DNA of 32,000 bases from an uncultured bacterium (GCA_964565945.1 CAZMGY010000019.1:30001-62000), one strand, 5' to 3'; positions 3,966 through 25,557 are shown, numbered from the stretch's first letter. Made by a program: numbers and translations. The notes: generated by a model from the sequence alone, not told the origin.

Positions 3966-5183
3966 ATGACAGAAAATGTTAGAGCGGAACGTTTGACTCA
4001 AAGCCAAGAATTGGCTCTTTTGCGTCGTATGGCTCAGATAATGATTGAAGAGCTGGACTTGGATCGGGTTCTTAAGGAGGTTGTTGCACTTATCAGTGAG
4101 GCGACCTTGGCAGATTCTGTTTTTATTTATTTGTTTGACCTCAAAAAAGAACATCTTTTGCTCAAGGCTTCCAAGACACCTCACGAGGGCGAGCTAGGGC
4201 ACGTTGCCCTTAAAATTGGTGAAGGAATTACTGGTTGGACTGCCGAGCGTAATGAAAAAGTTATGATTACGAAAAATGCTTACGAAGATAACCGATTCAA
4301 AGAGTTTTCGGTTTTGCCCGAAGACAGGTTTGAATCTTTTTTAGCGTTGCCTATTGTTTACAAAGACGATCCGATTGGTGTTGTTAATATTCAAAATAAA
4401 GAAATCAAGCGCTTTTCTAAGCGTATGGTTCAATTGCTTGAAACCATTGCGTGCAATGTGGCTGGTTTGATTGAAAACGCCCGTTTGTACGAAGAAACCA
4501 AAAAGAAAATGCAGCGCTTTGAGAGTTTGGTTCGAATCAGTACGTCGATCACATCTGAGCAATTGCTGGAGGGTATTTTGCAGACTGTTGTCGAAGTTAC
4601 GGCCCAGCTACTTAATTCTAAAATCTGTTCGCTCATGTTAGTTAGCGAAGACAAGAATGTCTTGGAAATTAAGGCGTCCCAAAGCTTAAGTGAGGAGTAT
4701 GTCGATAAGCCCTCTGTTGATATTCATAATAGTTTGAGTGGAGATGTAGTGAAGTCTCAAAAAGCTGTGGTGATTTATGATGTGAAAAAAGATTTTCGTT
4801 ATCAGTTTGGTGAATTGGCCGTTAAAGAAAATTTAACCTCGTTATTGATTGTTCCTATGATACTTAAAAATGAGGTTATTGGCGTTTTGAATGTTTATAC
4901 ACAAACGTATTATCACTTTGGTCAGGAAGAGATTGATACTTTGCAGATCATTGCTAATCAAGCCGCTGCGACGATCGATAATCGGCACTTAATGGAAGAA
5001 AATATCAAAACTCGTGAAGCTCTGAAAACGCTTAAGTTGGTCGAAAGAGCTAAGGGGATTGTGATGAAGCGTAATCAGATTGATGAGGACACGGCTTATC
5101 GTCTTATCCGTAAGAAAAGTATGGACGCCTGTCGTTCCATGAAAGAAATCTCAGAAGCTATTATCCTAACAGAAACTATTTAA
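3966..5183 (+). CDS. GAF-GAF-ANTAR RNA-binding antitermination-type regulator
   Basis: Two GAF-like halves (GEGITGW...ALPIVYKDDPIGVVNIQN and SLLIVPMILKNEVIGVLNVY). C-terminal ANTAR signature LKLVERAKGIVMKRNQIDEDTAYRLIRKKSMDACRSMKEISEAII. Begins 13 nt after folK. Confidence 0.8.
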   Translation: MTENVRAERLTQSQELALLRRMAQIMIEELDLDRVLKEVVALISEATLADSVFIYLFDLKKEHLLLKASKTPHEGELGHVALKIGEGITGWTAERNEKVMITKNAYEDNRFKEFSVLPEDRFESFLALPIVYKDDPIGVVNIQNKEIKRFSKRMVQLLETIACNVAGLIENARLYEETKKKMQRFESLVRISTSITSEQLLEGILQTVVEVTAQLLNSKICSLMLVSEDKNVLEIKASQSLSEEYVDKPSVDIHNSLSGDVVKSQKAVVIYDVKKDFRYQFGELAVKENLTSLLIVPMILKNEVIGVLNVYTQTYYHFGQEEIDTLQIIANQAAATIDNRHLMEENIKTREALKTLKLVERAKGIVMKRNQIDEDTAYRLIRKKSMDACRSMKEISEAIILTETI

Positions 5184-9696: not shown

Positions 9697-9725
9697 TTGA
9701 CATCTGGTTGAAGCCTATATATACT
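9697..9725 (+). promoter_or_regulatory. candidate sigma70 promoter of the sulfur operon
   Basis: TTGACA (9697-9702), 17-nt spacer, TATACT (9720-9725). Confidence 0.5.
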
Positions 9726-9726
9726 A

Positions 9727-9759
9727 CATACTTAATTAAATTACTAGGGATTAAGTATG
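9727..9759. promoter_or_regulatory. perfect 10-bp inverted repeat (candidate operator or start-codon-sequestering hairpin)
   Basis: CATACTTAAT (9727-9736), 13 nt, ATTAAGTATG (9750-9759). The right arm contains the rrf2 ATG (9757-9759), and the repeat starts 1 nt after the -10 hexamer. Confidence 0.4.
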
Positions 9760-10188
9760 AGATTGTCAGCCAAAATTGAATATTCGCTTAAAGCTATCAT
9801 GGCTTTGGCTCAGCTGTATGCTTCACAGAAACCTTTGAGTATGTCGAAAATTGCTGAGAAGCAAGGAGTTTCGAGTAAATTTTTGCTGCAATTAATGATA
9901 CGCATGAAGAATGCTAAAATAGTGACCAGTGTGCGTGGGGCGTCTGGGGGATATTATTTGCTCAAATCACCAGCCGAAATTTCGGTGGGAGAGGTGGTGG
10001 AGGCTGTTGACAGCACCGTGACAACCACGAGTTTGAAGCAAGAGCATTCGTTAAATATCGAAGAGAACGCCATCGTTCATTTTTGGGATAGGCTTAATGA
10101 AGGTGTTAAGGTTTGTTTAGAGCAGACGACGATTGAAGATCTGTTAAAAGATACTCAACAACAGGGCGTTTTGGTTTACTCTATTTAG
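9757..10188 (+). CDS. Rrf2-family transcriptional regulator, cluster-less (CymR-like)
   Basis: MRLSAKIEYSLKAIMALA... winged-helix N-terminus and RGASGGYYL motif. The three-Cys Fe-S ligand segment of IscR/NsrR is absent (only one Cys in the protein). Confidence 0.85.
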   Translation: MRLSAKIEYSLKAIMALAQLYASQKPLSMSKIAEKQGVSSKFLLQLMIRMKNAKIVTSVRGASGGYYLLKSPAEISVGEVVEAVDSTVTTTSLKQEHSLNIEENAIVHFWDRLNEGVKVCLEQTTIEDLLKDTQQQGVLVYSI

Positions 10189-10225
10189 TTTTGAGGGCAT
10201 TTTTTAGAAAGCGAGCAAAGTTTGT

Positions 10226-10444
10226 ATGGATTCGCGTAAGAAATCAATTGCTAAGACATTGACTTGGCGAGTAATTGCTATATTTATTACAATGATAGCT
10301 GTTTATATCTACAACAAAAATATTAAGGAGTCAGTTGTAGTTAGCTTAATGGCGAATAGTGTGAAGATGGTTTTGTATTATTTGCATGAACGCGTGTGGA
10401 ACAATGTGGGATTTGGTCGTAAACGTCCAGACTATGAGATTTAA
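10226..10444 (+). CDS. DUF2061 small membrane protein
   Basis: 72 aa. KTLTWRVIAIFITMIAVYIY... and YYLHERVWN match the DUF2061 pattern as I recall it. Confidence 0.6.
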   Translation: MDSRKKSIAKTLTWRVIAIFITMIAVYIYNKNIKESVVVSLMANSVKMVLYYLHERVWNNVGFGRKRPDYEI

Positions 10445-10459
10445 GGAGGGCTTTAAGAT

Positions 10460-11380
10460 ATGGCTAAGATAGCACAAGATATGACCGAACTTGTTGGAGG
10501 GACACCTCTGGTACGATTGAATCGTTTGTCTGATGGTCATGCCACAGTTCTTGCGAAATTGGAGTTTTTTAATCCTGCAGGGTCTGTGAAAGATCGTATT
10601 GGCTTTTATATGTTGCGTGTCGCTGCCGACGAAGGTTTGATCAGAGAAGGTTCATTGATTGTTGAACCGACAAGTGGTAACACAGGCATTGCTTTAGCGT
10701 GGGTGGCGGCAGTCAAAGGTTATCGTCTGATTTTAACGATGCCAGAATCGATGAGTCGCGAGCGTGTGGCTATGTTGGAGGCCTTAGGTGCGGAAGTGCG
10801 ACTAACGCCAGCCCACTTGGGCATGTCGGGAGCGATTGAAGAGGCTCAAGAGATTTTGAAGGATAATCCTGGAGCTTTTATGCCTCAGCAGTTTAGCAAT
10901 GCTAACAACCCAGACATTCATCGTAAAACCACTGCCGAAGAGGTGTGGAACGATACGGATGGTGAGGTAGACATTTTTGTGGCAGGTGTTGGAACCGGAG
11001 GAACGATTACGGGTGTGGGTGAGGTTCTTAAGGATCGTAAGTCCGATGTGAAAATTGTGGCAGTGGAGCCAGATGATTCCCCTGTGTTGTCTGGTGGAGA
11101 ACCTGGACCGCATATAATTCAAGGGATTGGCGCTGGTTTTGTTCCAGATAACCTTAATCGTGACATACTTGATCAGATATTTCGTGTGACGAATGAGCAG
11201 GCCAAAGAGACGGTGGTCGCTTTGGCACGCAAAGAAGGTATTTTTTCTGGGATTTCGAGTGGAGCCAATGTGTATGCAGCTTTGCAGTTGGCGCAGCTAC
11301 CAGAGAATAAAGGCAAGACAATTGTTGTGATTGTGTGCGACTTAGGGGATCGTTACTTGAGTACTCAAGTATTTGAGTAA
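10460..11380 (+). CDS. cysK: cysteine synthase A (O-acetylserine sulfhydrylase)
   Basis: [11 protein letters not shown] (PLP Lys), [21 protein letters not shown]. Confidence 0.92.
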
Positions 11381-11401
11381 TCTAACTAAGAGGAGAACGC
11401 A

Positions 11402-11617
11402 ATGGACATATCGATCAATGGCAAGACAAAGAGTTTTGAAGAAGCAAGTTTGACAGTGACCGAATTATTTGAAAAAGAGAACGTCCAAATGCCTGAAATG
11501 GTGTCCCTTGAAGTCAACGGGGAATTTTTGGATCGAGAGGCTTTTGAGGCCACCATTGTGAAGGATGGGGATAAAGTCGAGTTTTTGTATTTTATGGGTG
11601 GCGGGAATCTAAAGTAA
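11402..11617 (+). CDS. ThiS/MoaD-like ubiquitin-fold sulfur carrier protein with masked C-terminus (HcyS/CysO-like)
   Basis: 71 aa. The pattern MDISINGK...LEVNGEFLDRE...VKDGDKVEFLYFMGGG is typical of ThiS. The diglycine is followed by the extra residues NLK. AGGAG SD upstream. Confidence 0.75.
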   Translation: MDISINGKTKSFEEASLTVTELFEKENVQMPEMVSLEVNGEFLDREAFEATIVKDGDKVEFLYFMGGGNLK

Positions 11618-11635
11618 ATGAAAGAAGTTCGATAT

Positions 11636-11664
11636 GGATCTCGCGAGCAAGTCGCGAGATGACG
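11636..11664 (+). repeat. GC-rich palindromic element, copy a
   Basis: GGATCTCGCGAGCAAGTCGCGAGATGACG. 9-bp stem ATCTCGCGA/TCGCGAGAT with a 5-nt loop. Lies in the carrier-metY spacer. Confidence 0.8.
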
Positions 11665-11746
11665 CAAGGCAGGACATTAAGTTGATGGACAAGCAACAAA
11701 GTTGATCCTGCTTACGAAGTGGAAGGGCTATGAGGAGAAAAGAATC

Positions 11747-12991
11747 ATGTCGGATTATAATTTTCAAACACAACAAATTCACGCGCCAGTCGATCAACGC
11801 AAACGCTCAGGGGAAACAACATCAGGTCCTGCGCAGTCATCAGCTTTTGAGCATGAACTAGCCGAGGATATTCAGGCCGTTTTTGGCCAGCATCAATTTG
11901 GTTATATTTATTCCCGAATTGCCAATCCTACGGTGAATCAGCTTGAGCAAAGAATCACTGCTTTGGAAGATGGTATTGGAACGGTGGCCACATCGTCGGG
12001 AATGGCGGCTGTTAGTAGTGCTCTGATCAATATTCTGCAAACGGGTGATGAATTTATTTCGGGTAATAGTTTGTTTGGAGGGTGTTTTTCTTTGTTCACA
12101 CAGGTGTTTCCTCGCATGGGTATCACTCCTGTATTTGTGGAAGCTTCGGATGTGGATGCGTATGCGGTTGCCATTACACCCAAGACCAAAGCTCTTTTTT
12201 TTGAAGTGATTGGGAATCCTAAAATTGATGTGCCAAATGTGAAGGCGATTGCAGGGGTGGCACATGCTCACGGTCTTCCGTTAATTTTAGATAACACAGT
12301 GGCGACGCCATGGTTGTTTAAGGCTAAGGATTTTGGAGCTGATATTATTGTTCATTCGACCTCCAAATATATTAACGGACATGGTAATGCCATTGGTGGT
12401 TCGATCACCGATTGTGGCACATTTTCTTTTGAAGGTGAAAAGTTTGCCGAGTTTGAACCTTTTTACAAAAAGTTTCGTCACTTAGCCTTTTTGGCTAAGT
12501 TGCGCAAGCAAATAGTGATCAATATGGGGCCTTGTCAGTCGCCTCAAAATGCATTTTTGCAACTGGCGGGCTTGGAAACCTTATCGTTGCGCATGAAGCA
12601 ACATTCGGACAATGCTTTGGCATTGGCTCAGTTTTTGGAAAGCCATAACAAAGTGACTAAGGTAAATTACGTTGGTTTAACTTCTAGCCCGTGGCATGAG
12701 ATCGCTAAAGTGCAATTTCAAGAACACTTTAGTGGCTTACTTAGTTTTGAGCTTAAAGATCGTGAAACGGCTTTTCAGGTGATCAATCATCGCAGTTTTG
12801 CACGTAATTTGCCGAATATTGGCGATGCCAAAACGCTTATGGTTCATCCTGATACAACGATTTATCACGATTATTCAGATGAGGATAAAGCGTCTTTAGG
12901 TGTGACTCCAGGTTTAATCCGTTTGTCGGTGGGATTGGAATCAACTAATGACATTATTGACGATTTGGATAAAGCTTTGCAAAAAGCTTAG
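11747..12991 (+). CDS. metY: O-acetylhomoserine sulfhydrylase
   Basis: ATG 11747 (MSDYNFQTQQIHA) with GAGGAG SD. HSTSKYINGHG carries the PLP lysine of the Cys/Met-metabolism PLP family, with MetY-type length. The ORF-track TTG at 11702 is an upstream extension. Confidence 0.9.
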   Translation: MSDYNFQTQQIHAPVDQRKRSGETTSGPAQSSAFEHELAEDIQAVFGQHQFGYIYSRIANPTVNQLEQRITALEDGIGTVATSSGMAAVSSALINILQTGDEFISGNSLFGGCFSLFTQVFPRMGITPVFVEASDVDAYAVAITPKTKALFFEVIGNPKIDVPNVKAIAGVAHAHGLPLILDNTVATPWLFKAKDFGADIIVHSTSKYINGHGNAIGGSITDCGTFSFEGEKFAEFEPFYKKFRHLAFLAKLRKQIVINMGPCQSPQNAFLQLAGLETLSLRMKQHSDNALALAQFLESHNKVTKVNYVGLTSSPWHEIAKVQFQEHFSGLLSFELKDRETAFQVINHRSFARNLPNIGDAKTLMVHPDTTIYHDYSDEDKASLGVTPGLIRLSVGLESTNDIIDDLDKALQKA

Positions 12992-13005
12992 ATTTTACAT
13001 TGATT

Positions 13006-13034
13006 GGATCCCGCGATCAGGTCGCGGGATGACG
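13006..13034 (+). repeat. GC-rich palindromic element, copy b
   Basis: GGATCCCGCGATCAGGTCGCGGGATGACG. 9-bp stem ATCCCGCGA/TCGCGGGAT. Starts 15 nt after the metY stop. Confidence 0.8.
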
Positions 13035-13058
13035 AGAAAAAATTGCGGGAGATAGATT

Positions 13059-13088
13059 CCGTCATTCTGCGGCTTGATCAGAGAATCT
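13059..13088 (-). repeat. GC-rich palindromic element, copy c (degenerate, inverted orientation)
   Basis: The reverse complement AGATTCTCTGATCAAGCCGCAGAATGACGG aligns with copy b across GAT, GATCA, CGC and ATGACG. It forms a tail-to-tail pair with copy b. Confidence 0.6.
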
Positions 13089-13108
13089 AGTGAAAAGGAA
13101 GAAAAATA

Positions 13109-13912
13109 ATGGACTTGAACGAAGAACAAATTGAACGATATTCGCGACATATTCTTTTGCAAGGCATTGGCTTGGAAGGTCAAATCAAATTAAATCAAGG
13201 GAAAGTCTTGGTGATTGGCGTTGGTGGCTTAGGCGCGCCTATTGCGATGTATTTGGCTGCTGCGGGTGTCGGAACCATTGCTTTGGTCGATGATGATGTG
13301 GTTGAAATTTCTAATTTGCAACGTCAAATTATTCACTTCACGAAGGATATCAAGGTTCCTAAGGTTGATTCGGCGGAAGAGAAAATGGTGGCCATGAATC
13401 CCGATATCAAGGTGGTTAAAATTCATGAATTTGTTAACGCCAGAAATATTCGCGATATTATTCGAGATTGGGACTTTGTGATAGATGGCACAGATACGTT
13501 TGGGATTAAGTTTTTGGTGAATGATGCTTGTGTGATGGAGAAAAAGCCTTTTTCGCATGGAGGGATATTGCGTTTCGATGGTCAAACGATGACCATTAAG
13601 CCACATGAGTCGGCATGTTATCGTTGTGTTTTCTTGCAGCCTCCGCCAGTTAATGCTGTTCCAAGTTGCTCGCAAGCTGGTGTATTGGGAGCCATTGTTG
13701 GCATGTTGGGAACGATTCAAGCGACAGAAGCTTTGAAGTTTTTAACTGAGGTTGGTGATTTGTTGGAAAATAGGCTGTTAAGTTTTAATGCTAAAACGAT
13801 GCGTTTTCGTGAAGTGAATTTTAAGAAAAACCCAAAATGTGGTGTGTGTGGAGATAGTCCAACCATCACTAAATTGAAAGATGCTCCTGCAGTGGTTTGT
13901 GATTTGAAATAG
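13109..13912 (+). CDS. ThiF/MoeB/HesA-family E1-like adenylyltransferase (HcyF/MoeZ-like, no rhodanese domain)
   Basis: RYSRHILL, GVGGLGAP nucleotide loop, CYRC...CGVC zinc site, PSCSQAGVLG. Confidence 0.85.
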   Translation: MDLNEEQIERYSRHILLQGIGLEGQIKLNQGKVLVIGVGGLGAPIAMYLAAAGVGTIALVDDDVVEISNLQRQIIHFTKDIKVPKVDSAEEKMVAMNPDIKVVKIHEFVNARNIRDIIRDWDFVIDGTDTFGIKFLVNDACVMEKKPFSHGGILRFDGQTMTIKPHESACYRCVFLQPPPVNAVPSCSQAGVLGAIVGMLGTIQATEALKFLTEVGDLLENRLLSFNAKTMRFREVNFKKNPKCGVCGDSPTITKLKDAPAVVCDLK

Positions 13913-13943
13913 TAAGTTATTGCTAAGATGGCATGAGGTGGAC

Positions 13944-14339
13944 ATGAAGATTAAAAAAGACATTATAGAGAAGATGTTTGCTCAAGCTAAACAAGGCTTG
14001 CCTAATGAGGTTTGTGGTTTTTTAGCTGGGGAAAAGGGTGAAGTGACTAAGCACTACGAGTTAACCAATGTGGATGCATCGCCAGAGCATTTCACTATGG
14101 ATCCTAAAGAGCAGTTTGTGGCGGTGAAGGATATTCGCAACGAGGGCCTAACGCTGATGGCGTGTTATCACAGTCATCCCGAAACACCTGCCCGTCCATC
14201 GGATGAAGATATACGTTTAGCCTACGATCCCAACCTCAGTTATGTGATTATGTCCCTTAAGGATGGACAAAAAAATGTGAAATCTTTTCGTATTCAAGAT
14301 ATGAATGTCGAGCATGAAAAATTAGAAGTAACTGAATAA
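13944..14339 (+). CDS. JAMM/MPN+ metalloprotease (HcyD/Mec/QbsD-like)
   Basis: NEVCGFL (Glu) plus HSHPETPARPSDED, which is the JAMM motif HxHx7Sx2D (14169-14204). ATG 13944 is preferred over the ORF-track TTG at 13920. Confidence 0.85.
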   Translation: MKIKKDIIEKMFAQAKQGLPNEVCGFLAGEKGEVTKHYELTNVDASPEHFTMDPKEQFVAVKDIRNEGLTLMACYHSHPETPARPSDEDIRLAYDPNLSYVIMSLKDGQKNVKSFRIQDMNVEHEKLEVTE

Positions 14340-14352
14340 AGGAGCTTGGATA

Positions 14353-16731
14353 ATGAAGTTTTATGAACTTCCCGATGTTTTAGAAAAAGAAGTGAATATT
14401 TTTGATCAGCAAATCAAAGATTATCAAAAGGGTGATATTGATCCTGTTGGATTTAAAGGGATTCGTGTTGCGCATGGTATTTATGAGCAGCGCAAACCAG
14501 AAACACATATGGTTCGTATTCGCTGTGCTTCTGGAGGGGTGACACCTGCCCAGCTACGGAAAATATCTCAATTGGCCCAAAAGTATGGCTCTGGAGAGAT
14601 GCATGTCACGACACGCCAAGAGATGCAGCTTCATTATGTTGACTTAAACGATGTGATTACGGTGTACAACGAACTTCGTTCTGTGGGTTTATCTTCTCGT
14701 GGTGGTGGTGGAAATACAGTGCGCAACATACTGGCTTCCTATGATTCAGGCGTGACCACAGATGAAGTTTTTGACGTGGCTCCTTATGCGATCGAGCTGA
14801 CCACTCGCATGATTAACGAAGCCGATTCTTGGAATTTACCTCGTAAGTTCAAAATTGCTTTTTCTAATAACGATTATGATCGTTCTCGTGCGGCGGTGAC
14901 TTGTTTAGGTTTTATTGCTAAAAAGCAAGGTGAGCAAAAAGGTTTTAAGGTTTATTGTGCTGGAGGCCAAGGATCTAAGCCAATGTTGGGTCAGGTTTTG
15001 TTTGATTTTGTTGAACATGACAAAGTTTATCACATTACTAAAGCGATTAAGATCATGTTTGATAAGTACGGAAATCGTCGCCAACGTAGCAAGGCTAAGT
15101 TAAAGTTTTTGTGGGATAAGTTAGGCAAGGAAGAGTTTCTGAAGAAGTTTCACGAGGAGTATGATGAGCTTGTCAAGGATATGTCTCTTGCGTTAGACCT
15201 GAAGCCTATTGGCAATGAAGCGCAGGTGAAAGATGGATATGAACCTGAGTTAGTTTTTGGGGAGAGCTATAAGCGTTGGAAAAAATGTTATGTGAAGGCT
15301 CAAAAACAAGATGGTCTTGTGATGATTAAAGTTCCTTTGAAGCTCGGTGATATTGAAGGGTCAGATGGTGAGAGAATTGCTGATGAGCTCGAGAACTTTG
15401 GTGATAATGTTCTACGTTTTTCTGTGGATCAAAATGTTCATTTTCGTAATATTCCCGAAGCATATTTAGGTAACATTTATAACTTGATTCAGCTGATTGA
15501 TTCCTTATCGAGTGATCCAGAAATGTTTGGCCAAATGATTGCTTGTACTGGGGCCGATACTTGTAAATTAGGTATTTGTTTGCCTCGCGGTGTGACGCCA
15601 AAAATTCAAGATCTATTGCGCGATAGCGAATTAGATATTGATGCCCTATCGCATGTCAAAATTCATATTTCTGGATGTCCCAACACTTGTGGATGTCACC
15701 ATGTGGCAGATCTTGGCTTTTTTGGAAAAGTGATGCGTCAAGGCAAGGATATGATGCCTGCTTACAATGTGTTAGCGGGTGCTATTTCTGACGAGGGGAA
15801 AACACGTTATGCCTTAAAGGTTGATGAGATAGCGGCCAAAGATTTGCCAGTCTTTGTGAAAGAGTTTTTTGCCGTTTATCTTGCTAAGAAAGATACATAT
15901 GCAACGTTTACCGAATACATTGATGCCGAGGGGCAAGATGATATTAAGGCTGTGTGCGAGCAATTTCGTACTTTGCCTAGCAAAGATGAGAATGAAGATT
16001 ACTATTTCGATTGGGGTTCCGAAGAACCGTTCACTCTATTGAAAGGTCAAAAAGCCGAGTGTTCTGCTGGTATGTTCGACATGATTAATGTGGACAACAA
16101 GATGGTTAAAGAAGCCCAAGTGCACTTTGAAGCTACTGAAGATAATCAAGTGCGGATGGAAGATTTATACCAGATGATGTTTTCGACATCGCGCATGCTT
16201 TTGGTCACTCGGGGCATCGAGTCTAAAACAGATGAGCAAGTGTTTGAGGACTTTATTCAGCACTTTATCAAAACCGATCTGATTGCCGAGTCTTTTACGG
16301 ATATTGTTCTTGTGGCTAAGGACAAAAAAGCCGAAGAGCTTCTTGCGCATCAAGATAAAGTGATCAGTTTGGTGGAAGCTGTTCGGGAGTTGTATAAAAA
16401 TATGGATGATTCTCTACGCTTTTTGGACAAAGAAGGCAATATTTCAGGCGAATCTTTCAATGCTAAGAAAAATGATGATGCTTCTGCAGATAAACAAGAT
16501 AGCACGTCAGCTGAACGCTTTAAAGACTTGCGTGGTGTGGGGTGTCCGATGAACTTTGTGAAAGTTAAAATTGAGATGGCAAGCATGAAATCGGGTGAAA
16601 AGATTGCCGTATTTTTGGATGATGGAGCTCCTGTTGAGAATGTTCCCAGTTCGGTGCGCAACGAAGGTCATACGATTGTGGTTTTGGAGCAACAAGGCAG
16701 CCACTGGATGCTTGTGATTCAAAAAGCGTAA
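14353..16731 (+). CDS. sir: assimilatory ferredoxin-type sulfite reductase hemoprotein fused to an unassigned helical region and a C-terminal TusA/SirA-like domain
   Basis: NIR_SIR repeats (RIRCASGGVTPAQLRKISQLAQKYG...TTRQEMQLH). Siroheme/[4Fe-4S] cysteines CTGADTC and CPNTCGC. The last ~72 aa (DLRGVGCPMNFVKVK...) resemble TusA, with the Cys codon at 16543-16545. Confidence 0.85.
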   Translation: MKFYELPDVLEKEVNIFDQQIKDYQKGDIDPVGFKGIRVAHGIYEQRKPETHMVRIRCASGGVTPAQLRKISQLAQKYGSGEMHVTTRQEMQLHYVDLNDVITVYNELRSVGLSSRGGGGNTVRNILASYDSGVTTDEVFDVAPYAIELTTRMINEADSWNLPRKFKIAFSNNDYDRSRAAVTCLGFIAKKQGEQKGFKVYCAGGQGSKPMLGQVLFDFVEHDKVYHITKAIKIMFDKYGNRRQRSKAKLKFLWDKLGKEEFLKKFHEEYDELVKDMSLALDLKPIGNEAQVKDGYEPELVFGESYKRWKKCYVKAQKQDGLVMIKVPLKLGDIEGSDGERIADELENFGDNVLRFSVDQNVHFRNIPEAYLGNIYNLIQLIDSLSSDPEMFGQMIACTGADTCKLGICLPRGVTPKIQDLLRDSELDIDALSHVKIHISGCPNTCGCHHVADLGFFGKVMRQGKDMMPAYNVLAGAISDEGKTRYALKVDEIAAKDLPVFVKEFFAVYLAKKDTYATFTEYIDAEGQDDIKAVCEQFRTLPSKDENEDYYFDWGSEEPFTLLKGQKAECSAGMFDMINVDNKMVKEAQVHFEATEDNQVRMEDLYQMMFSTSRMLLVTRGIESKTDEQVFEDFIQHFIKTDLIAESFTDIVLVAKDKKAEELLAHQDKVISLVEAVRELYKNMDDSLRFLDKEGNISGESFNAKKNDDASADKQDSTSAERFKDLRGVGCPMNFVKVKIEMASMKSGEKIAVFLDDGAPVENVPSSVRNEGHTIVVLEQQGSHWMLVIQKA

Positions 16732-16743
16732 GGTAACAGAGAG

Positions 16744-17451
16744 ATGAGTGAGCAATTGCAGGCCTATAGAGAACAGGTTCAAGGTTTAGAGGCCAAGGTC
16801 ATTGTGGCATGGGCGTTCGAAACCTTTGGTGTTAAGGATTTGGTTTTGGCTTCGAGTTTGGGGGCAGAAGACCAAGTGTTGACGGACATGGTCTGTTCGC
16901 AAGAGCCTGAAGCGAGAGTGTTCACTTTGGATACGGGACGTTTGTTTCAAGAATCTTATAATGTGATGCAAACCTCGATGAATAGATATCACCTCAAGTA
17001 TGAGGTTTATGCGCCTGAGGCTGATGAAATTATTGATTTGGTTCGGGATAAAGGTCCTAATTTATTTTATGATAGTGTTATGGATCGTAAACAGTGTTGC
17101 TATGTGCGCAAGGTTCGTCCTTTGCAGAAGGTTTTAGGCACGGCCAAAGCTTGGTTAACTGGTTTGCGATCTGAGCAGTCGGTGACGCGTGATGCTCTTG
17201 AAGTGGTTGAGGGGGATGACAACTTTGGTCTTTATAAAATCAATCCCTTGGCGGCTTGGTCCGAAGCAGACATTTGGTCCTACATTAAAGATAAGGATGT
17301 TCCTTACAATGCTTTACATGAGCAAGGATTTTTGAGCATTGGTTGTGTTCCGTGCACACGTGTGGTTAAGGACGGTGAAGATGTTCGCGCTGGTCGTTGG
17401 TGGTGGGAAGACCCTAAACACAAAGAATGTGGCTTGCATGCCAAAAAATAA
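16744..17451 (+). CDS. cysH: adenylylsulfate (APS)/PAPS reductase, Fe-S-cluster type
   Basis: PAPS_reduct fold and C-terminal KECGLH. Carries the extra CC (17095-17100) and CVPC (17344-17355) cysteine pairs characteristic of [4Fe-4S] APS reductases. Confidence 0.9.
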
Positions 17452-17465
17452 AGAAAGATAAAGCT

Positions 17466-18347
17466 ATGACAGAGTTAGATAAATTAGAAGCCCAAGGGAT
17501 TTATATATTCCGTGAAGCGTATCGCAATTTTAAAAATCTAGCCATGCTATGGTCAATCGGAAAAGATAGTACCGTTTTGCTATGGTTAGCTCGTAAGGCA
17601 TTTGCGGGGCATGTGCCGTTTCCTTTTGTTCATATTGATACTTCTTATAAGGTTCCTGCCATGATTGCTTATCGTGATCAATTGGCACGTAAATGGAAAC
17701 TAAACATGGTTTATGGACAAAATCAAGAAGCCTTAAAGCAAAAGCAAACGTTTCCTGATGGTGCGATCGATCGATTGGCTTGTTGCAAAGCCTTGAAGAG
17801 TGAAGCTCTTAAGCACACCCTTTCTGGAGAGTGGACACGTTTTCGCATGAATCATGACAAAGGTGAATACGAAGTTGATCAGAACACTGAACCCTACACT
17901 GGTGTGATTGTGGGTGTACGCTCTGACGAAGAAGGTACGCGTTCCAAAGAAAGATATTTTTCGCCACGTGATCATCAAAATGAATGGGATATTGCTAATC
18001 AACCACCTGAGCTTTGGAATCAATTTAAGACAGATTTTGCTCCAGGAACGCATGTGCGGGTGCATCCCTTGCTTGATTGGACAGAGCTTAATATTTGGGA
18101 ATACATTGAACGTGAAAATATTCCGATTATTGATTTATACTTTGACCGAGGGGAGGGGACACGTTATCGTTCTTTAGGCTGTATGCCGTGTACATTTCCT
18201 GTCGAGTCGACAGCCAAGAATGTCAAGGATATTATTGAAGAATTACGCAGTGGAAAGTTTGCTAACATTGCTGAACGTTCAGGTCGCGCGCAAGATAGAG
18301 AGGATGGCGGAACACTTGAGACACTAAGAAAAGATGGGTATATGTAA
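17466..18347 (+). CDS. cysD: sulfate adenylyltransferase subunit 2
   Basis: ATG 17466 ([22 protein letters not shown]...), [16 protein letters not shown]-loop and the C-terminal ...[14 protein letters not shown] signature. Confidence 0.92.
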
Positions 18348-18348
18348 A

Positions 18349-20157
18349 ATGAGCACAGATGTATTGAATAACGAACAAATGAATATTGTGGTGGTTGGTC
18401 ACGTGGATCATGGAAAAAGTACTGTAATTGGCCGTTTGATGGCGGATACAAACTCTTTGCCACAGGGTAAGCTTGAACAAGTGAAATTTAATTGTGAGCG
18501 AAATTCCAAGCCCTTTGAATATGCATTTCTTTTGGATGCACTCAAGGATGAGCAAGCTCAAGGGATTACGATTGATTCGGCACGTTGTTTTTTTAAGACC
18601 AACAAAAGGCATTACATCATTATTGATGCCCCTGGGCATAGCGAGTTTTTGAAAAATATGATCACAGGAGCCACTCGTGCCGAGGCAGCGTTATTGATTA
18701 TTGATGCTCACGAAGGCGTGCAAGAAAACTCACGTCGCCATGGTTATATGCTATCGATGTTAGGTATCAAACAAATTGCGATTTGTGTGAATAAAATGGA
18801 TTTAGTCGATTACTCTCAAGAGGTTTTCGACAATATCCAAAAAGAGTATTCCGAATTTCTTAAGGAAATCAATATAACACCTAAGTTGTTTCTTCCGATT
18901 AGTGCTCGAAAAGGCGATAATATTGTATCGTTGTCGGATAATATACCTTGGTTTAAGGGTATGCATGTCTTAGAAACGATGGATGACTTCAAAAAAGAGC
19001 TTGATGAGAAAGATAAATCTTTTCGTTTTCCTTTGCAAGATATTTATAAATTTACCGAAAATAGGGATGATCGTCGTATTTTTGTGGGACGCATCGAAAC
19101 AGGCGAGATTCGCAAGGGTGACAAGGTTGTGTTTTTACCTTCGAGTAAAACCTCGACGATTCGAGCTGTGGAGGGGTTTCATATGCCCGATGATAGCTAC
19201 GCCTATTCGGGACAATCAACGGGGTTTACCTTAGAAACACAGATCTATGTGAAACCAGGTGAAATCATGTGCAAGGCTGGGGAAGAATTACCTAAAATCG
19301 GAGCACGTTTTCGTGCCAATATTTTTTGGTTAGGTCGCCAGCCGATGGTGAAGCAAAAACAGTACAAGCTTAAGATTGGAACATCGCAAATGCCAGTTTG
19401 GCTCGAGGGCATTCATCATATTTTGGATGCTTCGGAATTGTCGACGGTTCAAAATAAACAAAAGATTGATCGCCATGATGTGGGGGATTGTATTTTGCAA
19501 ACCTACAAGCCGATTGCTTTTGACCTAACTGGTGATATTGCAGCTACTAGTCGCTTTGTGATTGTCGATGATTACGAAATTACTGGTGGAGGGATTATCG
19601 TTGAGGATTTGGGGACCGAAAATAAGCGCTTACAAGATTACATTGATCGCCGTGAGCAAAATTGGGCGCGTAGTGCGATTACGCCTGAAAAACGTCGTTC
19701 TCGCTATGGACATGCAGCGACGCTTGTTTTGTTCACAGGTCCTCGTGGAGTGGGTAAGCAGCCTATGGCCGGTAAATTGGAAGAAAAGCTTTTTGAATGT
19801 AATTTTTTTACCTATTATTTAGGTTTAGCGAACACTTTGGAGCATTTGACCAGTCGTACAGGGATGGACAAAGATCGGGTGGGTTTATTAACTCAACTGG
19901 GAGAAATATCGCACATATTCACCGATGCGGGCCTTATTTTGATCACAACTATCTCCGAAATGGACGATTATGAATTGCAAATGTTGCGCACCTTGAATCA
20001 CCCCAGTGATTTGGTGGTGGTTAATGTAGGAGATAATCTGTTTTCTTCAGAGAAAGTGGATCTGGATCTGCCCGAACAAGCCGATCCAGAGATCTATGTG
20101 CAACAGGTGGTTCAATTCTTGCAACAAAGAAACGTAATCACGGATTATATGATTTAA
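18349..20157 (+). CDS. cysN: sulfate adenylyltransferase subunit 1 (GTPase) fused to a degenerate APS-kinase-like domain
   Basis: ATG 18349 lies 1 nt after the cysD stop. [14 protein letters not shown] and NKMD GTPase motifs. The C-terminal ~170 aa align to CysC, but the P-loop is GPRGVGKQ (19738-19761) and the LDGD motif is LGLA. Confidence 0.9.
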
Positions 20158-20188: not shown

Positions 20189-20218
20189 CGTTATCCCACG
20201 ACTTGATCAGTGGGATCC
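20189..20218 (-). repeat. GC-rich palindromic element, copy d (inverted orientation)
   Basis: The reverse complement is GGATCCCACTGATCAAGTCGTGGGATAACG, with a 7-bp stem ATCCCAC/GTGGGAT. Lies in the cysN-mnmA spacer and overlaps the spurious GTG at 20210. Confidence 0.7.
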
Positions 20219-20248
20219 AGGGAGTTTAAAATATTGAATTTAGTTAAC

Positions 20249-21325
20249 ATGGATAGCAATAAAACAGAAGTTGTGTTAGTTGCTCTTAGCGGAGGAGTGG
20301 ACTCAGCTGTTGCAGCGCGCCTTTTGATGCAAGAGCATGAGACTGTGATTGGGGTGTCTCATCGCCATTGGCCAGAATCGAACTGTTGTTCGACCGCATG
20401 TTTGGATCGTTCTGCTGCTCAATGTATCGATATGGGTATTCCTTATTATCCGCTTGATTGTATGGTCGAATTCGCTCAGGCGATTGTAGATGACTTTGTG
20501 GCCATCTACCAAAGAGGTCAAACGCCGAATCCATGTGTCTTGTGCAATCAAACCATTCGCTTTGATTTGATGATTCAGAAGTTTTTTGAACAACATCCCG
20601 ATTATATCGGGCGTGATTATCGGATTGCGACTGGTCATTATGCCAAAGTTGAGAAGATTGAGGGGATTTATCGTCTTAAACGTGGGGTTGATCTGGACAA
20701 AGACCAATCGTATATGCTTTATCGCTTGTCTTCTGAGCAGTTGCAACATTGTTTGTTCCCTTTGGGTAGTCTATACAAAACGCAAGTGCGTGAAAAAGCA
20801 GAGCGCTGGAACTTACAATCGGCCAAGCAAAGTGAGAGTCAAGATATTTGCTTTGTGACTGACACCTACCAAACTTTTTTGGATCAGTACACGGGCCAGC
20901 AACAGAGTCCCGGTGATTTTGTTGATCAGAAGGGGAAGGTGTTGGGACAACATCGTGGCGTGGCTTATTATACCCGTGGTCAGCGTAAAGGTTTGGGCTT
21001 AAGTGATGGTCCTTGGTATGTGGTGTACACGGATGTGACCACGAACCAAGTAGTTTTGGGGGCGCGTGAAGATTTGGCTACGTCCTCCTTTAGGATTCAT
21101 ACAACGCGTTGGAGTGATCCTTATGTTCACTTTCCATTAGAGGCGACTGTACAGTTGCGTTATCATGCTCAGCCTGTTCCTGTTCTGGTGGAACAAATAG
21201 AGGAAGATAATTATCGCTGCCAGCTTAAGGATTTGTCCTATGATGTGAGTCCGGGTCAGTCGGCTGTGACTTATCAAGAGGATTACGTGGTGGGGGGAGG
21301 ATTGATTGCCTATGACCCAGTTTAA
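20249..21325 (+). CDS. mnmA: tRNA 2-thiouridine(34) synthase
   Basis: ATG 20249 (MDSNKTEVVLVALSGGVDSAV PP-loop). Catalytic Cys contexts NPCVLCN and SQDICF. Confidence 0.9.
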   Translation: MDSNKTEVVLVALSGGVDSAVAARLLMQEHETVIGVSHRHWPESNCCSTACLDRSAAQCIDMGIPYYPLDCMVEFAQAIVDDFVAIYQRGQTPNPCVLCNQTIRFDLMIQKFFEQHPDYIGRDYRIATGHYAKVEKIEGIYRLKRGVDLDKDQSYMLYRLSSEQLQHCLFPLGSLYKTQVREKAERWNLQSAKQSESQDICFVTDTYQTFLDQYTGQQQSPGDFVDQKGKVLGQHRGVAYYTRGQRKGLGLSDGPWYVVYTDVTTNQVVLGAREDLATSSFRIHTTRWSDPYVHFPLEATVQLRYHAQPVPVLVEQIEEDNYRCQLKDLSYDVSPGQSAVTYQEDYVVGGGLIAYDPV

Positions 21326-23252
21326 AGTGGTGGCTCGTTGCAGCCCTCTATCGCAAATTCAAGTTCAAGAAGTGGTGCAGTTGCGCCCTGATCTTGAGTT
21401 GGATATTGATATGATGCCAACCTTGGGCGATCATGATAAGGCCAGTTCTTTGCGAGATCCTGTGGTTAGTGATTTTTTTACACGTGAATTAGACGAGGCT
21501 ATTCTTAAAGGATATGCTGATATTGCGATCCATTCGGCTAAAGATTTGCCAGTTCCGTTGCATCCCGATTTGCGAGTGGTGGCTTTGCTTCCTTGTTATG
21601 AGGCGAGTGATTCCTTAGTTTCACGAGGCAATCTTTCTTTGGTAGAACTATCTTCTGGGGCTTGTGTTGCTACCAGTTCCAAACATCGCCAACAGGCCAT
21701 AGCTGATTTGCGTGATGATTTAAATTATCGTGATATTCGAGGCACGATTGAAGACCGTATCGCCCAAATTGATGAGGGTTTGGCCGATGCCGTGGTGGTG
21801 GCGACCTGTGCGCTCCAACGTTTAGGCTTGCAGGATCGGATTGCCGAGGTTTTGCCGATTGAGACATGGCCTTTGCAAGGGCATTTGGCGATTGTGGCAC
21901 ATCGTGATCGCCCTGACTTGGTGAAGTTGTGGGCTTCGAGTAATATACGTCAAGGTTTTGGTAAAGTTTATTTGGCTGGCTTTGGTCCTGGCAATCCTGA
22001 GTTAATAACGGTTAAGACACATCGTTTGATTCAGGAAAGTGATGTGATTTTGTATGATGATTTGATAGATCCATCTATCCTTCGGGATATGCCTGGAGAA
22101 GCGATTTATGTTGGTAAACGTAAAGGTGTTCATTATCGCAGTCAAAAAGAAATCAATCGCTTGATCAAAGATAAGGCGTGGCAGGGTTTGCAAGTTTTAA
22201 GACTTAAAGGGGGAGACCCTTGCATTTTTGGACGGGTTGGTGAAGAAGTTGAGTGGTTGCAGCAATGGATGATTCCTTTTGAGATTATTCCAGGTGTGAC
22301 TTCAGCGATGGCGGCTGCGGCGAGTCAAAATATTTCTTTAACGCAACGGGGTGTATCGAAGACCTTTTCTTTTTTAACGGGACATCATGCCCAAAATCGT
22401 CAGATCGAAGTACCTCCAGTGGATACTATTGTCTATTACATGGCGGCGACGGAGTTAGAGACCTTGGCTAAGCATCTTCTTAGGGAAGGTCGTTTGCCAG
22501 ATGAGCCCGTCCTTTTGGTGCAAAATGCCACTTTTGCTCATGAAGTGTCTGAATTGAAGACGGTTTCCACGATGGCGCAAACGTCGTTATCGTCTCCATT
22601 GATGGTAATTGTGGGGTATGTGGCTAAACGCGCAATACCCACTCATTGCGTTCTTTACACTGGCTTGGATGCACGTCGTTACCGTTCGCTTTACAAAGTG
22701 GTGCATTATCCCTTAATTCGTACAAAATTTGTTGGTTTGGATCCCGCGGGCAAGCCACGGGATGACGTAGCTCAGTATGACGCTCTTCTTTTCACCAGCC
22801 GTGAGGCGGTGAGATACTTTTATTCTAAGCATAGAGTGTGCCGTGATCAAGAGGTTCTTGCGATTGGTTCTGGAACAGAAAATCTGTTGCAAGATTATGG
22901 TGTTCATGTGAGCCATAAGGCTGAACAGCCTCATTCCGATGCTATGGTGGCTCTGTTAGAGACTTTGTCTTACAGATCTTACCTTTATCCATGTTCGAGT
23001 CTTTCAAACAATGCTTTGCACACACATGATAAAGTGACCCCATGGGTAATTTATACAACCGAGCCTGTTCTTCAAGATCCCGTGGACTTGAATGTGTTTG
23101 ATTGGATCGTGTTCACTTCTCCTTCAACGGTGAATAGTTTTTTACAGATTTATCCGTTTTTGCCCGAACATGTTGTTTATGAGGTTTTAGGGCCTTTCAC
23201 ACGCCAAGCTCTCAATGATCATGGTATTAAAGACACATCTATTGTGGGTTGA
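21312..23252 (+). CDS. tri-domain fusion: porphobilinogen-deaminase-like domains 1-2, uroporphyrinogen-III C-methyltransferase, uroporphyrinogen-III synthase
   Basis: N-terminal ~215 aa resemble HemC (HSAKDLP, ATSSKHRQ, RGTIEDR, LQGHLAIV). The middle has VYLAGFGPGNPELITVK...LKGGDPCIFGRVGEE (SUMT/CobA). The C-terminus has YPLIRT...YDALLFTSREAV...WIVFTSPSTV (HemD). ATG 21312 or TTG 21306; the gene overlaps the mnmA end. Confidence 0.8.
   Translation: MTQFKVVARCSPLSQIQVQEVVQLRPDLELDIDMMPTLGDHDKASSLRDPVVSDFFTRELDEAILKGYADIAIHSAKDLPVPLHPDLRVVALLPCYEASDSLVSRGNLSLVELSSGACVATSSKHRQQAIADLRDDLNYRDIRGTIEDRIAQIDEGLADAVVVATCALQRLGLQDRIAEVLPIETWPLQGHLAIVAHRDRPDLVKLWASSNIRQGFGKVYLAGFGPGNPELITVKTHRLIQESDVILYDDLIDPSILRDMPGEAIYVGKRKGVHYRSQKEINRLIKDKAWQGLQVLRLKGGDPCIFGRVGEEVEWLQQWMIPFEIIPGVTSAMAAAASQNISLTQRGVSKTFSFLTGHHAQNRQIEVPPVDTIVYYMAATELETLAKHLLREGRLPDEPVLLVQNATFAHEVSELKTVSTMAQTSLSSPLMVIVGYVAKRAIPTHCVLYTGLDARRYRSLYKVVHYPLIRTKFVGLDPAGKPRDDVAQYDALLFTSREAVRYFYSKHRVCRDQEVLAIGSGTENLLQDYGVHVSHKAEQPHSDAMVALLETLSYRSYLYPCSSLSNNALHTHDKVTPWVIYTTEPVLQDPVDLNVFDWIVFTSPSTVNSFLQIYPFLPEHVVYEVLGPFTRQALNDHGIKDTSIVG
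22739..22767 (+). repeat. GC-rich palindromic element, copy e, inside a coding sequence
   Basis: GGATCCCGCGGGCAAGCCACGGGATGACG, with 8 of 9 stem pairs. It is read in frame as GLDPAGKPRDDV within the HemD domain. Confidence 0.75.
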
Positions 23253-24144: not shown

Positions 24145-25557
24145 ATGACAGTGGCAATTCAGGCAGATTATAAAGTTAAAGATATATCTTTGGCCGATTT
24201 TGGTCACAAAGAAATCACTATCAGTGAGCAGGAAATGCCAGGTTTAATGGCTTTGCGTGAGAAATATAGGCAAAATAAACCTCTTAAAGGTGCCAAAATT
24301 ATGGGATCCTTGCACATGACTATTCAGACCGCTATTTTGATTGAAACTTTGGTCGAGTTAGGTGCGGATGTTCGCTGGGCCTCTTGCAATATTTTTTCGA
24401 CTCAAGACCATGCAGCGGCGGCGATTGCTCAGGCGGGAATACCTGTGTTTGCTTGGAAAGGTGAAACTTTAGAAGAATACTGGGAGTGCACTTTGGATGC
24501 TTTAAATTTTCCTGATAACGAAGGCCCAGATTTAATTGTGGACGATGGAGGTGATGCAACCTTATTGGTGCATCGTGGTGTTGATGCAGAGAAAGACGCC
24601 TCTATTCTTGACGAGCCGACTGATAACAAAGAGCTTCTGATTATGAATGCCTTGCTTAAAAGAATGCTGCAAAATGATTCTCAGAAATGGACCAAGATGG
24701 TGGCTAAGATCCAAGGTGTCTCCGAAGAGACAACCACAGGAGTTCATCGTCTTTACCAAATGTTGGATCAAGGGAAGTTGTTGTTTCCAGCTATTAATGT
24801 GAATGATTCTGTGACCAAATCTAAGTTCGACAATTTTTACGGCTGTCGTGAATCTTTGGCCGATGGTATCAAACGAGCCACTGATGTGATGTTGGCGGGC
24901 AAAGTGGTGGTTGTGTGTGGTTATGGAGATGTTGGTAAGGGCTGTGCTCATTCGATGCGCACTTATGGTGCTCGCGTTTTGGTGACCGAGATTGATCCGA
25001 TTTGTGCCTTACAAGCTGCCATGGAAGGCTTTGAAGTGACTACGATTGAGGATGCTTTGGCCGAAGGAAACCTCTTTGTAACAACTACGGGCAATAAAGA
25101 TGTGATTCATATTGAGCACATGGAACAGATGAAAGATCAGACAATCGTGTGTAATATTGGTCATTTTGATAATGAAATTCAGGTGGAAAAATTGGAAGCT
25201 TTTAAGGGAATTCAAAAAACCAATGTGAAGCCTCAGGTTGATCTGTATGAGTTTCCTGATGGTCATCAAATTATTTTATTGGCCGAAGGGCGTTTGGTGA
25301 ATCTTAGTTGTGCCACAGGACATCCTTCGTTTGTGATGAGTAATTCATTCACCAATCAAGTGTTGGCCCAAATTGATCTATGGGAGAACGATCACAAAAT
25401 CGGTGTGGAGTGTTTGTCGAAAAAGCTTGATGAAGAAGTGGCGCGCCTTCACTTGGAGAAGCTAGGTGTGAAGCTAACGGAACTCACAACTGAGCAGGCT
25501 GATTATATTGATGTGCCTGTTGAAGGGCCTTACAAGCCAGAGCATTATCGTTATTAA
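24145..25557 (+). CDS. ahcY: adenosylhomocysteinase
   Basis: 470 aa. [40 protein letters not shown] loop, C-terminal YRY. AAGGAG SD upstream. Confidence 0.95.

Follow-up and report, generated by a model that had tools for sequence, protein, structure and literature searches.

The locus described here raised the question of whether an uncultured bacterium hands the sulfur of sulfate to its amino acids on a protein carrier, and if so to which amino acid. The locus lies in a 32,000-nucleotide (nt) stretch of DNA (GCA_964565945.1, CAZMGY010000019.1:30001-62000), the whole of which is called the window below, and takes the form of an operon at 9757-20157. Open reading frame (ORF) listing and profile searches of the window proteins (Pfam, NCBIfam) gave the gene order Rrf2, DUF2061, CysK, sulfur carrier, MetY, E1 adenylyltransferase, JAMM protease, sulfite reductase (SiR) fused to TusA, CysH, CysD and CysN on the + strand. 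A preliminary description had reported the carrier, E1 and JAMM genes to be interleaved with cysK, metY, the SiR gene, cysH, cysD and cysN, and all of these were found on the + strand at the same or very near coordinates. The region very probably represents an HcyS-type protein-thiocarboxylate-dependent homocysteine pathway inside an assimilatory sulfate-reduction operon, orthologous to that of Wolinella succinogenes, with CysK working on free sulfide. The core of the preliminary description, an HcyS-type module in a sulfate-assimilation operon, was borne out by the Wolinella homologues, by the YFMGGG motif with its removable tail and by the MetY clade; most of its case for novelty was not.

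The carrier gene (11402..11617, + strand) encodes an HcyS-type ThiS-fold pro-protein of 71 aa (Pfam ThiS 8e-12; TIGR01683 59 bits). Its C-terminus (EFLYFMGGGNLK) consists of YFMGGG followed by a three-residue tail, NLK. The closest solved structure was that of a 78-aa ThiS-like protein (2k5p/3cwi, E 7e-20) with the C-terminus FLYFMGGGKL, and this homologue answers the doubt, left by the preliminary description, as to whether the carrier has a beta-grasp fold. Related carriers from about 50 loci had an invariant (F/Y)xYFMGGG and, after it, a variable tail, 0 to over 20 residues long; a pro-protein that is cut by the JAMM protease encoded nearby would be expected to look like this.

Three natural fusions with the carrier N-terminal to MetY were found in other metagenomes: P0156 (478 aa), P0221 (482 aa) and P0434 (a fragment). 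The junction lay directly after YFMGGG (exactly so in P0156 and P0221) or after a degenerate version of it, and JAMM cleavage would release both parts. Among the best 150 cluster representatives there was no reliable carrier-CysK fusion. The candidate P0489 was rejected as evidence, being a 152-aa fragment with a frameshifted carrier part; P0510, a RhaA fragment joined to ThiS, looked like a gene-calling artefact.

The E1 gene (13109..13912, + strand) encodes an HcyF-type adenylyltransferase of the ThiF/MoeB fold (267 aa; ThiF 3e-80, residues 11-246) with the GxGxxG motif and two CxxC motifs. A profile search of the 267 aa found the ThiF domain only and no rhodanese domain. The preliminary description took this to set the E1 apart from its precedents; however, Wolinella HcyF (272 aa) likewise has ThiF only, and the E1 of this operon class 'always lacks' rhodanese (Iyer, Burroughs & Aravind 2006; PMC1779556, Table 1 row 4e). 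The window E1 shared 60% identity with HcyF (338 bits), against 180-191 bits for the E. coli ThiF and MoeB structures. The MoeZ model PRK07878 gave it 275 bits, under the cut-off of 647. Adjoining the E1 gene is that of an HcyD-type JAMM metalloprotease (13944..14339, + strand; Prok-JAB 8e-26), in which the metal-binding motif is intact (HSHPETPARPSDED, pattern HxHx(7)SxxD). Its best solved structure was 2kks.

The metY ORF opens at 11702, and an ATG at 11747, preceded by a GAGGAG ribosome-binding site, is its real start. The gene (11747..12991, + strand) encodes an O-acetylhomoserine sulfhydrylase of the carrier-linked clade (Cys_Met_Meta_PP 3e-113). In a neighbour-joining tree of 63 MetY-family sequences, the operon-linked MetYs (54/54, including those of the window and the carrier-dependent one of Wolinella) formed a single clade with a bootstrap of 93/100, apart from the MetYs of Thermotoga and Mycobacterium tuberculosis, from the second paralogue in Wolinella and from other copies standing alone. 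The clade was without a loop of about nine residues, PDPSYHG(V/L)xY, which was kept in all canonical MetYs. By tree and loop, the window MetY is classed as a specialised enzyme and a member of the carrier-linked clade. The sole described structure of a carrier-dependent MetY is that of Wolinella (PMC8191291).

The Wolinella reference locus was rebuilt by passing from the window MetY to PDB 3ri6 (W. succinogenes MetY), from there to a 100%-identical protein (P0121), and from there to its contig (L087). One strand of this contig carried DUF2061, cysH, cysD, cysN, a 69-aa ThiS protein, a 272-aa E1 with ThiF only, a 130-aa JAB protein, a 764-aa NIR_SIR protein with C-terminal TusA, and siroheme synthase (cysG); metY was transcribed divergently from the cluster. 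Pairwise BLASTP against the Wolinella proteins gave identities of 53% for the carrier (HcyS), 53% for the JAMM protease (HcyD), 41% for SiR-TusA over its full length (Sir; TusA part 57%), 67% for CysD, 48% for CysN, 44% for CysH, 38% for MetY and 33% for DUF2061. The Wolinella carrier ends in NFLYFMGGGA. It is reportedly made as 'HcyS-Ala', from which HcyD removes the terminal alanine, and the GGG-A end fits this account. Passages in two later papers (PMC6225789 and PMC8191291) cite the carrier-dependent pathway of Wolinella (Krishnamoorthy & Begley 2011).

The sulfite reductase gene (14353..16731, + strand) encodes a three-part protein of 792 aa (NIR_SIR and NIR_SIR_ferr, two copies each; TusA 5e-19 at 725-791). 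The siroheme/4Fe-4S reductase part (Pfam NIR_SIR, NIR_SIR_ferr) occupies residues 1 to about 545, a conserved helical domain residues 545-715 approximately (window 15985-16497), and the TusA domain (Pfam TusA), with the invariant Cys731, the last 70 residues (725-792). An AlphaFold2 model was built from 60 homologues (mean predicted local distance difference test score, pLDDT, 89), and its folds were compared by Foldseek. The first part showed a ferredoxin-type NirA/SiR fold, with M. tuberculosis NirA as best match (1zj8, E 6e-32); the middle part was all-helical at about residues 572-682; the end had the fold of E. coli TusA (3lvj_C, template-modelling score 0.88, root-mean-square deviation 1.6 Å). 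The helical domain matched no Pfam family, and the fold search gave no significant match to it, the best being a weak one to a HEPN-like bundle (2hsb, E 0.037). In the 60-sequence alignment, the cluster cysteines C398, C404, C442 and C446, the pair E569-C570, whose flexible loop immediately precedes the helical domain, and C731-P732 of TusA were invariant. Wolinella Sir had the same motifs, the same helical domain and the same TusA fusion. The preliminary description had also counted as a difference from the precedents that the only candidate persulfide-relay domain is fused to the reductase; this is so in Wolinella Sir too, and it was the commonest architecture in the survey described below.

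Gene content, domain architecture, motifs, orthology and synteny of the locus are observed, and every chemical step is assigned by analogy with Wolinella. By this analogy, CysD and CysN would make adenosine 5'-phosphosulfate (APS), the Fe-S APS reductase would convert APS to sulfite, and the siroheme sulfite reductase would convert sulfite to sulfide. The 71-aa carrier would be made as a pro-protein from which JAMM cuts off NLK, baring the C-terminal GGG, and its terminal glycine would be adenylated by the rhodanese-less E1. Sulfide would turn the carrier adenylate into the thiocarboxylate, possibly being delivered as a persulfide by the TusA fused to the reductase. The specialised MetY would then add the carrier thiocarboxylate to O-acetylhomoserine. 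After an S-to-N acyl shift, the carrier-homocysteine amide would be hydrolysed by JAMM, by which homocysteine is freed and the carrier recycled.

The SiR-TusA fusion had thousands of relatives, and among the matches listed more than 100 shared 48-75% identity and the same three Pfam domains. With one genome per species, at least 572 encoding loci were obtained, of which the best 80 were taken with 10-kb flanks; their ORFs were labelled by phmmer with the window proteins as queries, and many of the loci were cut by contig ends. E1 and JAMM genes stood alongside SiR-TusA in 61/80 loci, carrier, metY and E1 followed each other in 47/80, and cysH, cysD and cysN lay downstream in 26/80. The full string of Rrf2, cysK, carrier, metY, E1, JAMM and SiR was present in 17/80. 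The position of the carrier between cysK and metY, which the preliminary description had put forward as distinctive, does differ from Wolinella but is not unusual, since this exact order was found in 28/80 loci from many phyla. The phyla surveyed included Marinamargulisbacteria, Planctomycetes-Verrucomicrobia-Chlamydiae (PVC) bacteria, Planctomycetota, Omnitrophota, Bacteroidota, Chlorobiota, Desulfobacterota, Fibrobacterota, Acidobacteriota and Spirochaetota. The nearest named genome was that of 'PVC group bacterium (ex Bugula neritina AB1)' (L007; 73% SiR identity), in which the gene order from Rrf2 through mnmA and hemC-cobA-hemD was identical to that of the window.

Variant arrangements were seen among the surveyed loci. 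Four Acidobacteriota loci (L041, L042, L046 and L048, about 12300-13300 in each) carried SiR-TusA, a CysM-type cysteine synthase, JAMM, E1 and MetY. The best PDB match of this synthase was cysteine synthase B, and the cluster appears to mix the mycobacterial design with that of Wolinella. Two Prolixibacteraceae loci (L077, 7035-10312; L082, 12453-15896) carried SiR-TusA, cysK, carrier, E1, a free-standing TusA and JAMM with no metY in the locus.

Several observations weigh against the assignment to an HcyS-type pathway. Window MetY and Wolinella MetY share only 38% identity, and by raw score the window MetY favours canonical MetY structures (349 vs 294 bits), so that its membership of the carrier-linked clade rests on the neighbour-joining tree and one indel. 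Automated models would label the carrier as ThiS, since it scores above the TIGR01683 cut-off, and the E1 as MoeB (PRK05690, 277 bits vs a cut-off of 266). The Wolinella model does not account for the conserved position of cysK beside the carrier.

This last point bears on the most durable alternative, in which one carrier thiocarboxylate is used both by MetY for homocysteine and by the adjacent CysK for cysteine, with JAMM releasing both products. The cysK gene lies directly upstream of the carrier gene with a gap of 21 nt, and the order cysK, carrier, metY recurs across phyla as given above. The Prolixibacteraceae loci, with cysK, carrier, E1, TusA and JAMM in one cluster and metY absent, give the strongest genomic hint that the carrier might sometimes work with a canonical CysK. 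In another locus (L061) cysK lies between E1 and TusA/JAMM, and the Acidobacteriota relatives place their CysM-type enzyme beside JAMM and E1, next to SiR-TusA. Moreover, the active site of CysK accepts the C-terminal peptide tails of other proteins, such as that of serine acetyltransferase, and such acceptance would favour use of the carrier.

The CysK protein itself argues in the other direction. Its gene (10460..11380, + strand; PALP 2e-77) scored as canonical O-acetylserine sulfhydrylase A (TIGR01139, 441 bits vs a cut-off of 351), whereas the cysM models gave 281-300 bits, under their cut-offs of 394-413 (TIGR01138: 281 vs 394). Its best solved structure was M. tuberculosis CysK1 (2q3b, 390 bits, 62% identity, almost no indels), which we take to be a sulfide-using enzyme, and no CysM was found among the best 60 structure matches. 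The window CysK shared 48-64% identity with operon-linked CysKs of other phyla and 74% with that of the PVC relative, so that it is as close to CysK1 as to the operon-linked enzymes of other phyla. In the CysK tree, three solved canonical CysKs nested among the operon-linked ones and no operon-specific clade was formed, unlike in the MetY tree. By these sequence comparisons CysK is classed as an ordinary CysK-type enzyme and not as CysM-type, the type known to use the CysO thiocarboxylate. Fusions point the same way, since the carrier is joined to MetY in three proteins and the only CysK-carrier candidate is the frameshifted fragment P0489. The Wolinella cluster is without cysK.

The adjacency of cysK to the carrier is also confounded with its adjacency to the regulator gene. 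Rrf2 was upstream of cysK in most related loci, and in one locus (L034) the two genes were still paired but lay apart from the carrier, at the operon's far end. In Bacillus subtilis, the Rrf2 protein CymR acts as a complex with CysK, and this is another possible reason why Rrf2 and cysK stay paired. The window regulator, the first gene of the operon (9757..10188, + strand; Pfam Rrf2 1e-29), is CymR/IscR-like (NCBIfam rrf2_super 110 bits; CymR 94 bits, under the CymR cut-off). CysK may also partner this adjacent regulator, and the meaning of its position is ambiguous. The evidence from sequence leans against one carrier feeding both MetY and CysK, and this double use is considered unlikely; CysK would most likely follow the ordinary route to cysteine, with free sulfide and O-acetylserine as its substrates.

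A more elaborate version would let the sulfur of sulfite never be freed as sulfide. The invariant Cys570 and Cys731 may form a persulfide relay from the reductase to the E1-bound carrier adenylate, which is an attractive possibility and is compatible with the HcyS-type pathway; the helical domain may take part in such a relay. It is improbable that the carrier is charged by this relay and then serves both MetY and the canonical CysK. A literature search on HcyF/HcyD/HcyS and on thiocarboxylate, TusA and sulfite reductase together brought up no information about the fused TusA or about linkage to cysK.

Archaea have small archaeal modifier proteins (SAMPs), which do both sulfur transfer and conjugation. 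The carrier, E1 and JAMM could on this model be a ubiquitin-like conjugation system, with counterparts of SAMPs, UbaA and desampylase, that modifies or regulates the sulfur-assimilation enzymes. The NCBIfam resemblance to UbaA (310 bits) and to Haloferax desampylase (86 bits) agrees with this, but both scores are below the cut-offs (450 and 130). The characterised Wolinella orthologues act in sulfur transfer, and the tight genetic linkage and fusion with MetY suggest that the role is metabolic, so conjugation, and not sulfur carriage, is very unlikely to be the main function of the three proteins. It is hardly credible that the operon merely holds a carrier and an E1 of the ordinary thiamin (ThiS/ThiF) or molybdenum-cofactor (MoaD/MoeB) kind lying beside sulfur genes: the thiS and MoeB model scores given above and the public label of relatives, 'sulfur carrier protein ThiS', speak for it, but the 32-kb window holds no thiG, thiH, thiO or moaE, JAB proteins never occur in thiamin or molybdenum-cofactor operons (PMC1779556, Iyer et al. 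2006), and the reading is already largely refuted by the JAMM protease, the masked carrier C-terminus, the greater similarity of the E1 to HcyF than to E. coli ThiF/MoeB, and the synteny of carrier, metY, E1, JAMM and SiR in the 47 loci.

With the HcyS-type pathway as the preferred reading, the remaining operon genes were assigned as follows. CysH (16744..17451, + strand; PAPS_reduct 1e-45) is an Fe-S-type APS reductase (TIGR02055 APS_reductase, 245 bits vs a cut-off of 235) with the corresponding motifs CC118, CxxC201 and ECGLH228. CysD, the ATP sulfurylase small subunit (17466..18347, + strand; PRK05253 352 bits), has an ORF extending up to 17427, and its real start is probably 17466; the identity with Wolinella CysD begins at residue 14. 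CysN, the GTPase subunit (18334..20157, + strand; 607 aa; GTP_EFTU 3e-46), has an APS-kinase-like domain in its C-terminal 155 residues (19690-20157), which gave only 29-33 bits with the APS_kinase Pfam model and has the P-loop GPRGVGKQ, with Q replacing the usual S/T. This domain is probably inactive or regulatory, in keeping with the reductase of the operon, which is of the APS type and not of the 3'-phosphoadenosine 5'-phosphosulfate type. The DUF2061 gene (10226..10444, + strand; Pfam DUF2061 5e-15) encodes a small membrane protein. DUF2061 was recurrent in the operons of many phyla, either before cysK or between SiR and cysH, and was present in Wolinella (L087, 9558-9785); a literature search on DUF2061 gave no functional information.

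Downstream of the operon, MnmA tRNA 2-thiouridylase (20210..21325, + strand; tRNA_Me_trans 3e-59) holds the same position in the PVC relative and in another locus (L028); it is probably a co-directional neighbour outside the pathway. It is followed by a HemC-CobA-HemD fusion of 648 aa (21306..23252, + strand; Pfam Porphobil_deam, TP_methylase, HEM4), which joins porphobilinogen deaminase, uroporphyrinogen-III methyltransferase and uroporphyrinogen-III synthase, and the same fusion follows the operon of the PVC relative. Its domains assign it to the formation of precorrin-2, from which the siroheme required by SiR is made. Related siroheme-pathway genes adjoin SiR in many loci, as cysG does in Wolinella. 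The preliminary description called the operon a complete sulfate-to-thiol operon, which was slightly generous, as it is without a sulfate transporter, a cysE/metX acetyltransferase and a gene for the last siroheme steps. S-adenosylhomocysteine hydrolase, of the methionine cycle, is encoded 4 kb downstream of the operon (24145-25557), and a GAF-GAF-ANTAR RNA-binding regulator upstream of it (3966-5183). All substantial genes of the window were on the + strand, with a G+C content of about 42%; the GC skew stayed above zero along the whole window (+0.13 to +0.33 per kb), in line with a long stretch of leading strand.

Upstream of the first gene, a sigma-70-like promoter candidate (TTGACA-17-TATACT, 9697..9725, + strand) matched the consensus at 11/12 positions and was the best promoter-like match in the region. 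It is a consensus match only; a TTGACA/TATAAT pair stood at the equivalent place in the closest relative (L007). A possible Rrf2 operator, the 7-bp inverted repeat 9730-9736 / 9750-9756, was rejected, being inseparable from the ribosome-binding site when compared with relatives. An Rfam scan of the whole window found no riboswitch or other known RNA.

The gaps between genes were tiny, as the preliminary description had it, for most pairs (12-37 nt), but not between carrier and metY (129 nt) or between metY and E1 (117 nt). Each of these two gaps, the only long ones in the operon, held one copy of a 29-nt palindromic repeat (GGATCYCGCGANCANGTCGCGRGATGACG), which pattern search found three times in the window, where chance alone would give 0 copies. 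Copy 1 (11636..11664, + strand) and copy 2 (13006..13034, + strand) form hairpins with RNA fold z-scores of -2.3 and -3.9 and differ by compensatory stem changes; copy 3 (22739-22767, + strand; 3 mismatches) is inside the hemC-cobA-hemD ORF. The repeat matched only contigs of the same genome. It is like a repetitive extragenic palindromic element and not a terminator, because no T-run follows it, and it might give differential mRNA stability within the operon.

As a single instance the locus adds little, since the operon class has been on record since 2006 and the demonstration of the pathway in Wolinella dates from 2011. The survey showed that operons with SiR-TusA, carrier, E1, JAMM and MetY are far more widespread than the literature suggests, that their carriers and E1 proteins are routinely mislabelled ThiS and MoeB, and that they frequently include a canonical cysK and an Rrf2 regulator.

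Among the known systems, that of Wolinella was the closest. Full-length homologues of all five pathway components were found (38-60% identity); the GGG with a removable tail on the carrier, the rhodanese-less E1, and the helical domain and TusA on the reductase were common to both; and the two MetYs belonged to the same clade with the same loop deletion. The two differed in arrangement. In Wolinella the order is cysHDN-hcyS-hcyF-hcyD-sir with a divergent metY and without cysK or Rrf2 in the cluster, whereas in the window Rrf2, DUF2061 and cysK lead the operon and metY lies between carrier and E1. The carrier tail is NLK in the window and a single Ala in Wolinella HcyS; CysN has 607 aa with the degenerate APS-kinase-like domain in the window and 459 aa without it in Wolinella.

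The operon also matched, point by point, class 4e of Iyer et al. (2006), which combines a protein resembling ThiS/MoaD with JAB, E1, SirA and sulfate-assimilation genes, and in which a SirA/TusA protein is always present (PMC1779556, Table 1 row 4e). Cysteine synthase is not listed there for class 4e, being a feature of classes 4c and 4d with an E1-rhodanese fusion (PMC1779556), whereas a canonical cysK was common in the class 4e-type operons of the present survey.

With the CysO/MoeZ/CysM/Mec+ system of M. tuberculosis the locus shares the thiocarboxylate of a ThiS-fold carrier, an E1, a thiocarboxylate-accepting pyridoxal-phosphate enzyme and an amino-acid-releasing JAMM protease. The acceptor there is a CysM-type O-phosphoserine sulfhydrylase, whereas the window enzyme is CysK-type and nearest to CysK1. 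MoeZ of M. tuberculosis has a rhodanese domain, and CysO has no tail beyond its terminal GG. The ThiS/ThiF and MoaD/MoeB systems share with the locus the beta-grasp carrier, the E1 fold and the adenylation-thiocarboxylation chemistry; however, they are without a JAMM protease or a masked carrier C-terminus, and their acceptors are ThiG and MoaE.

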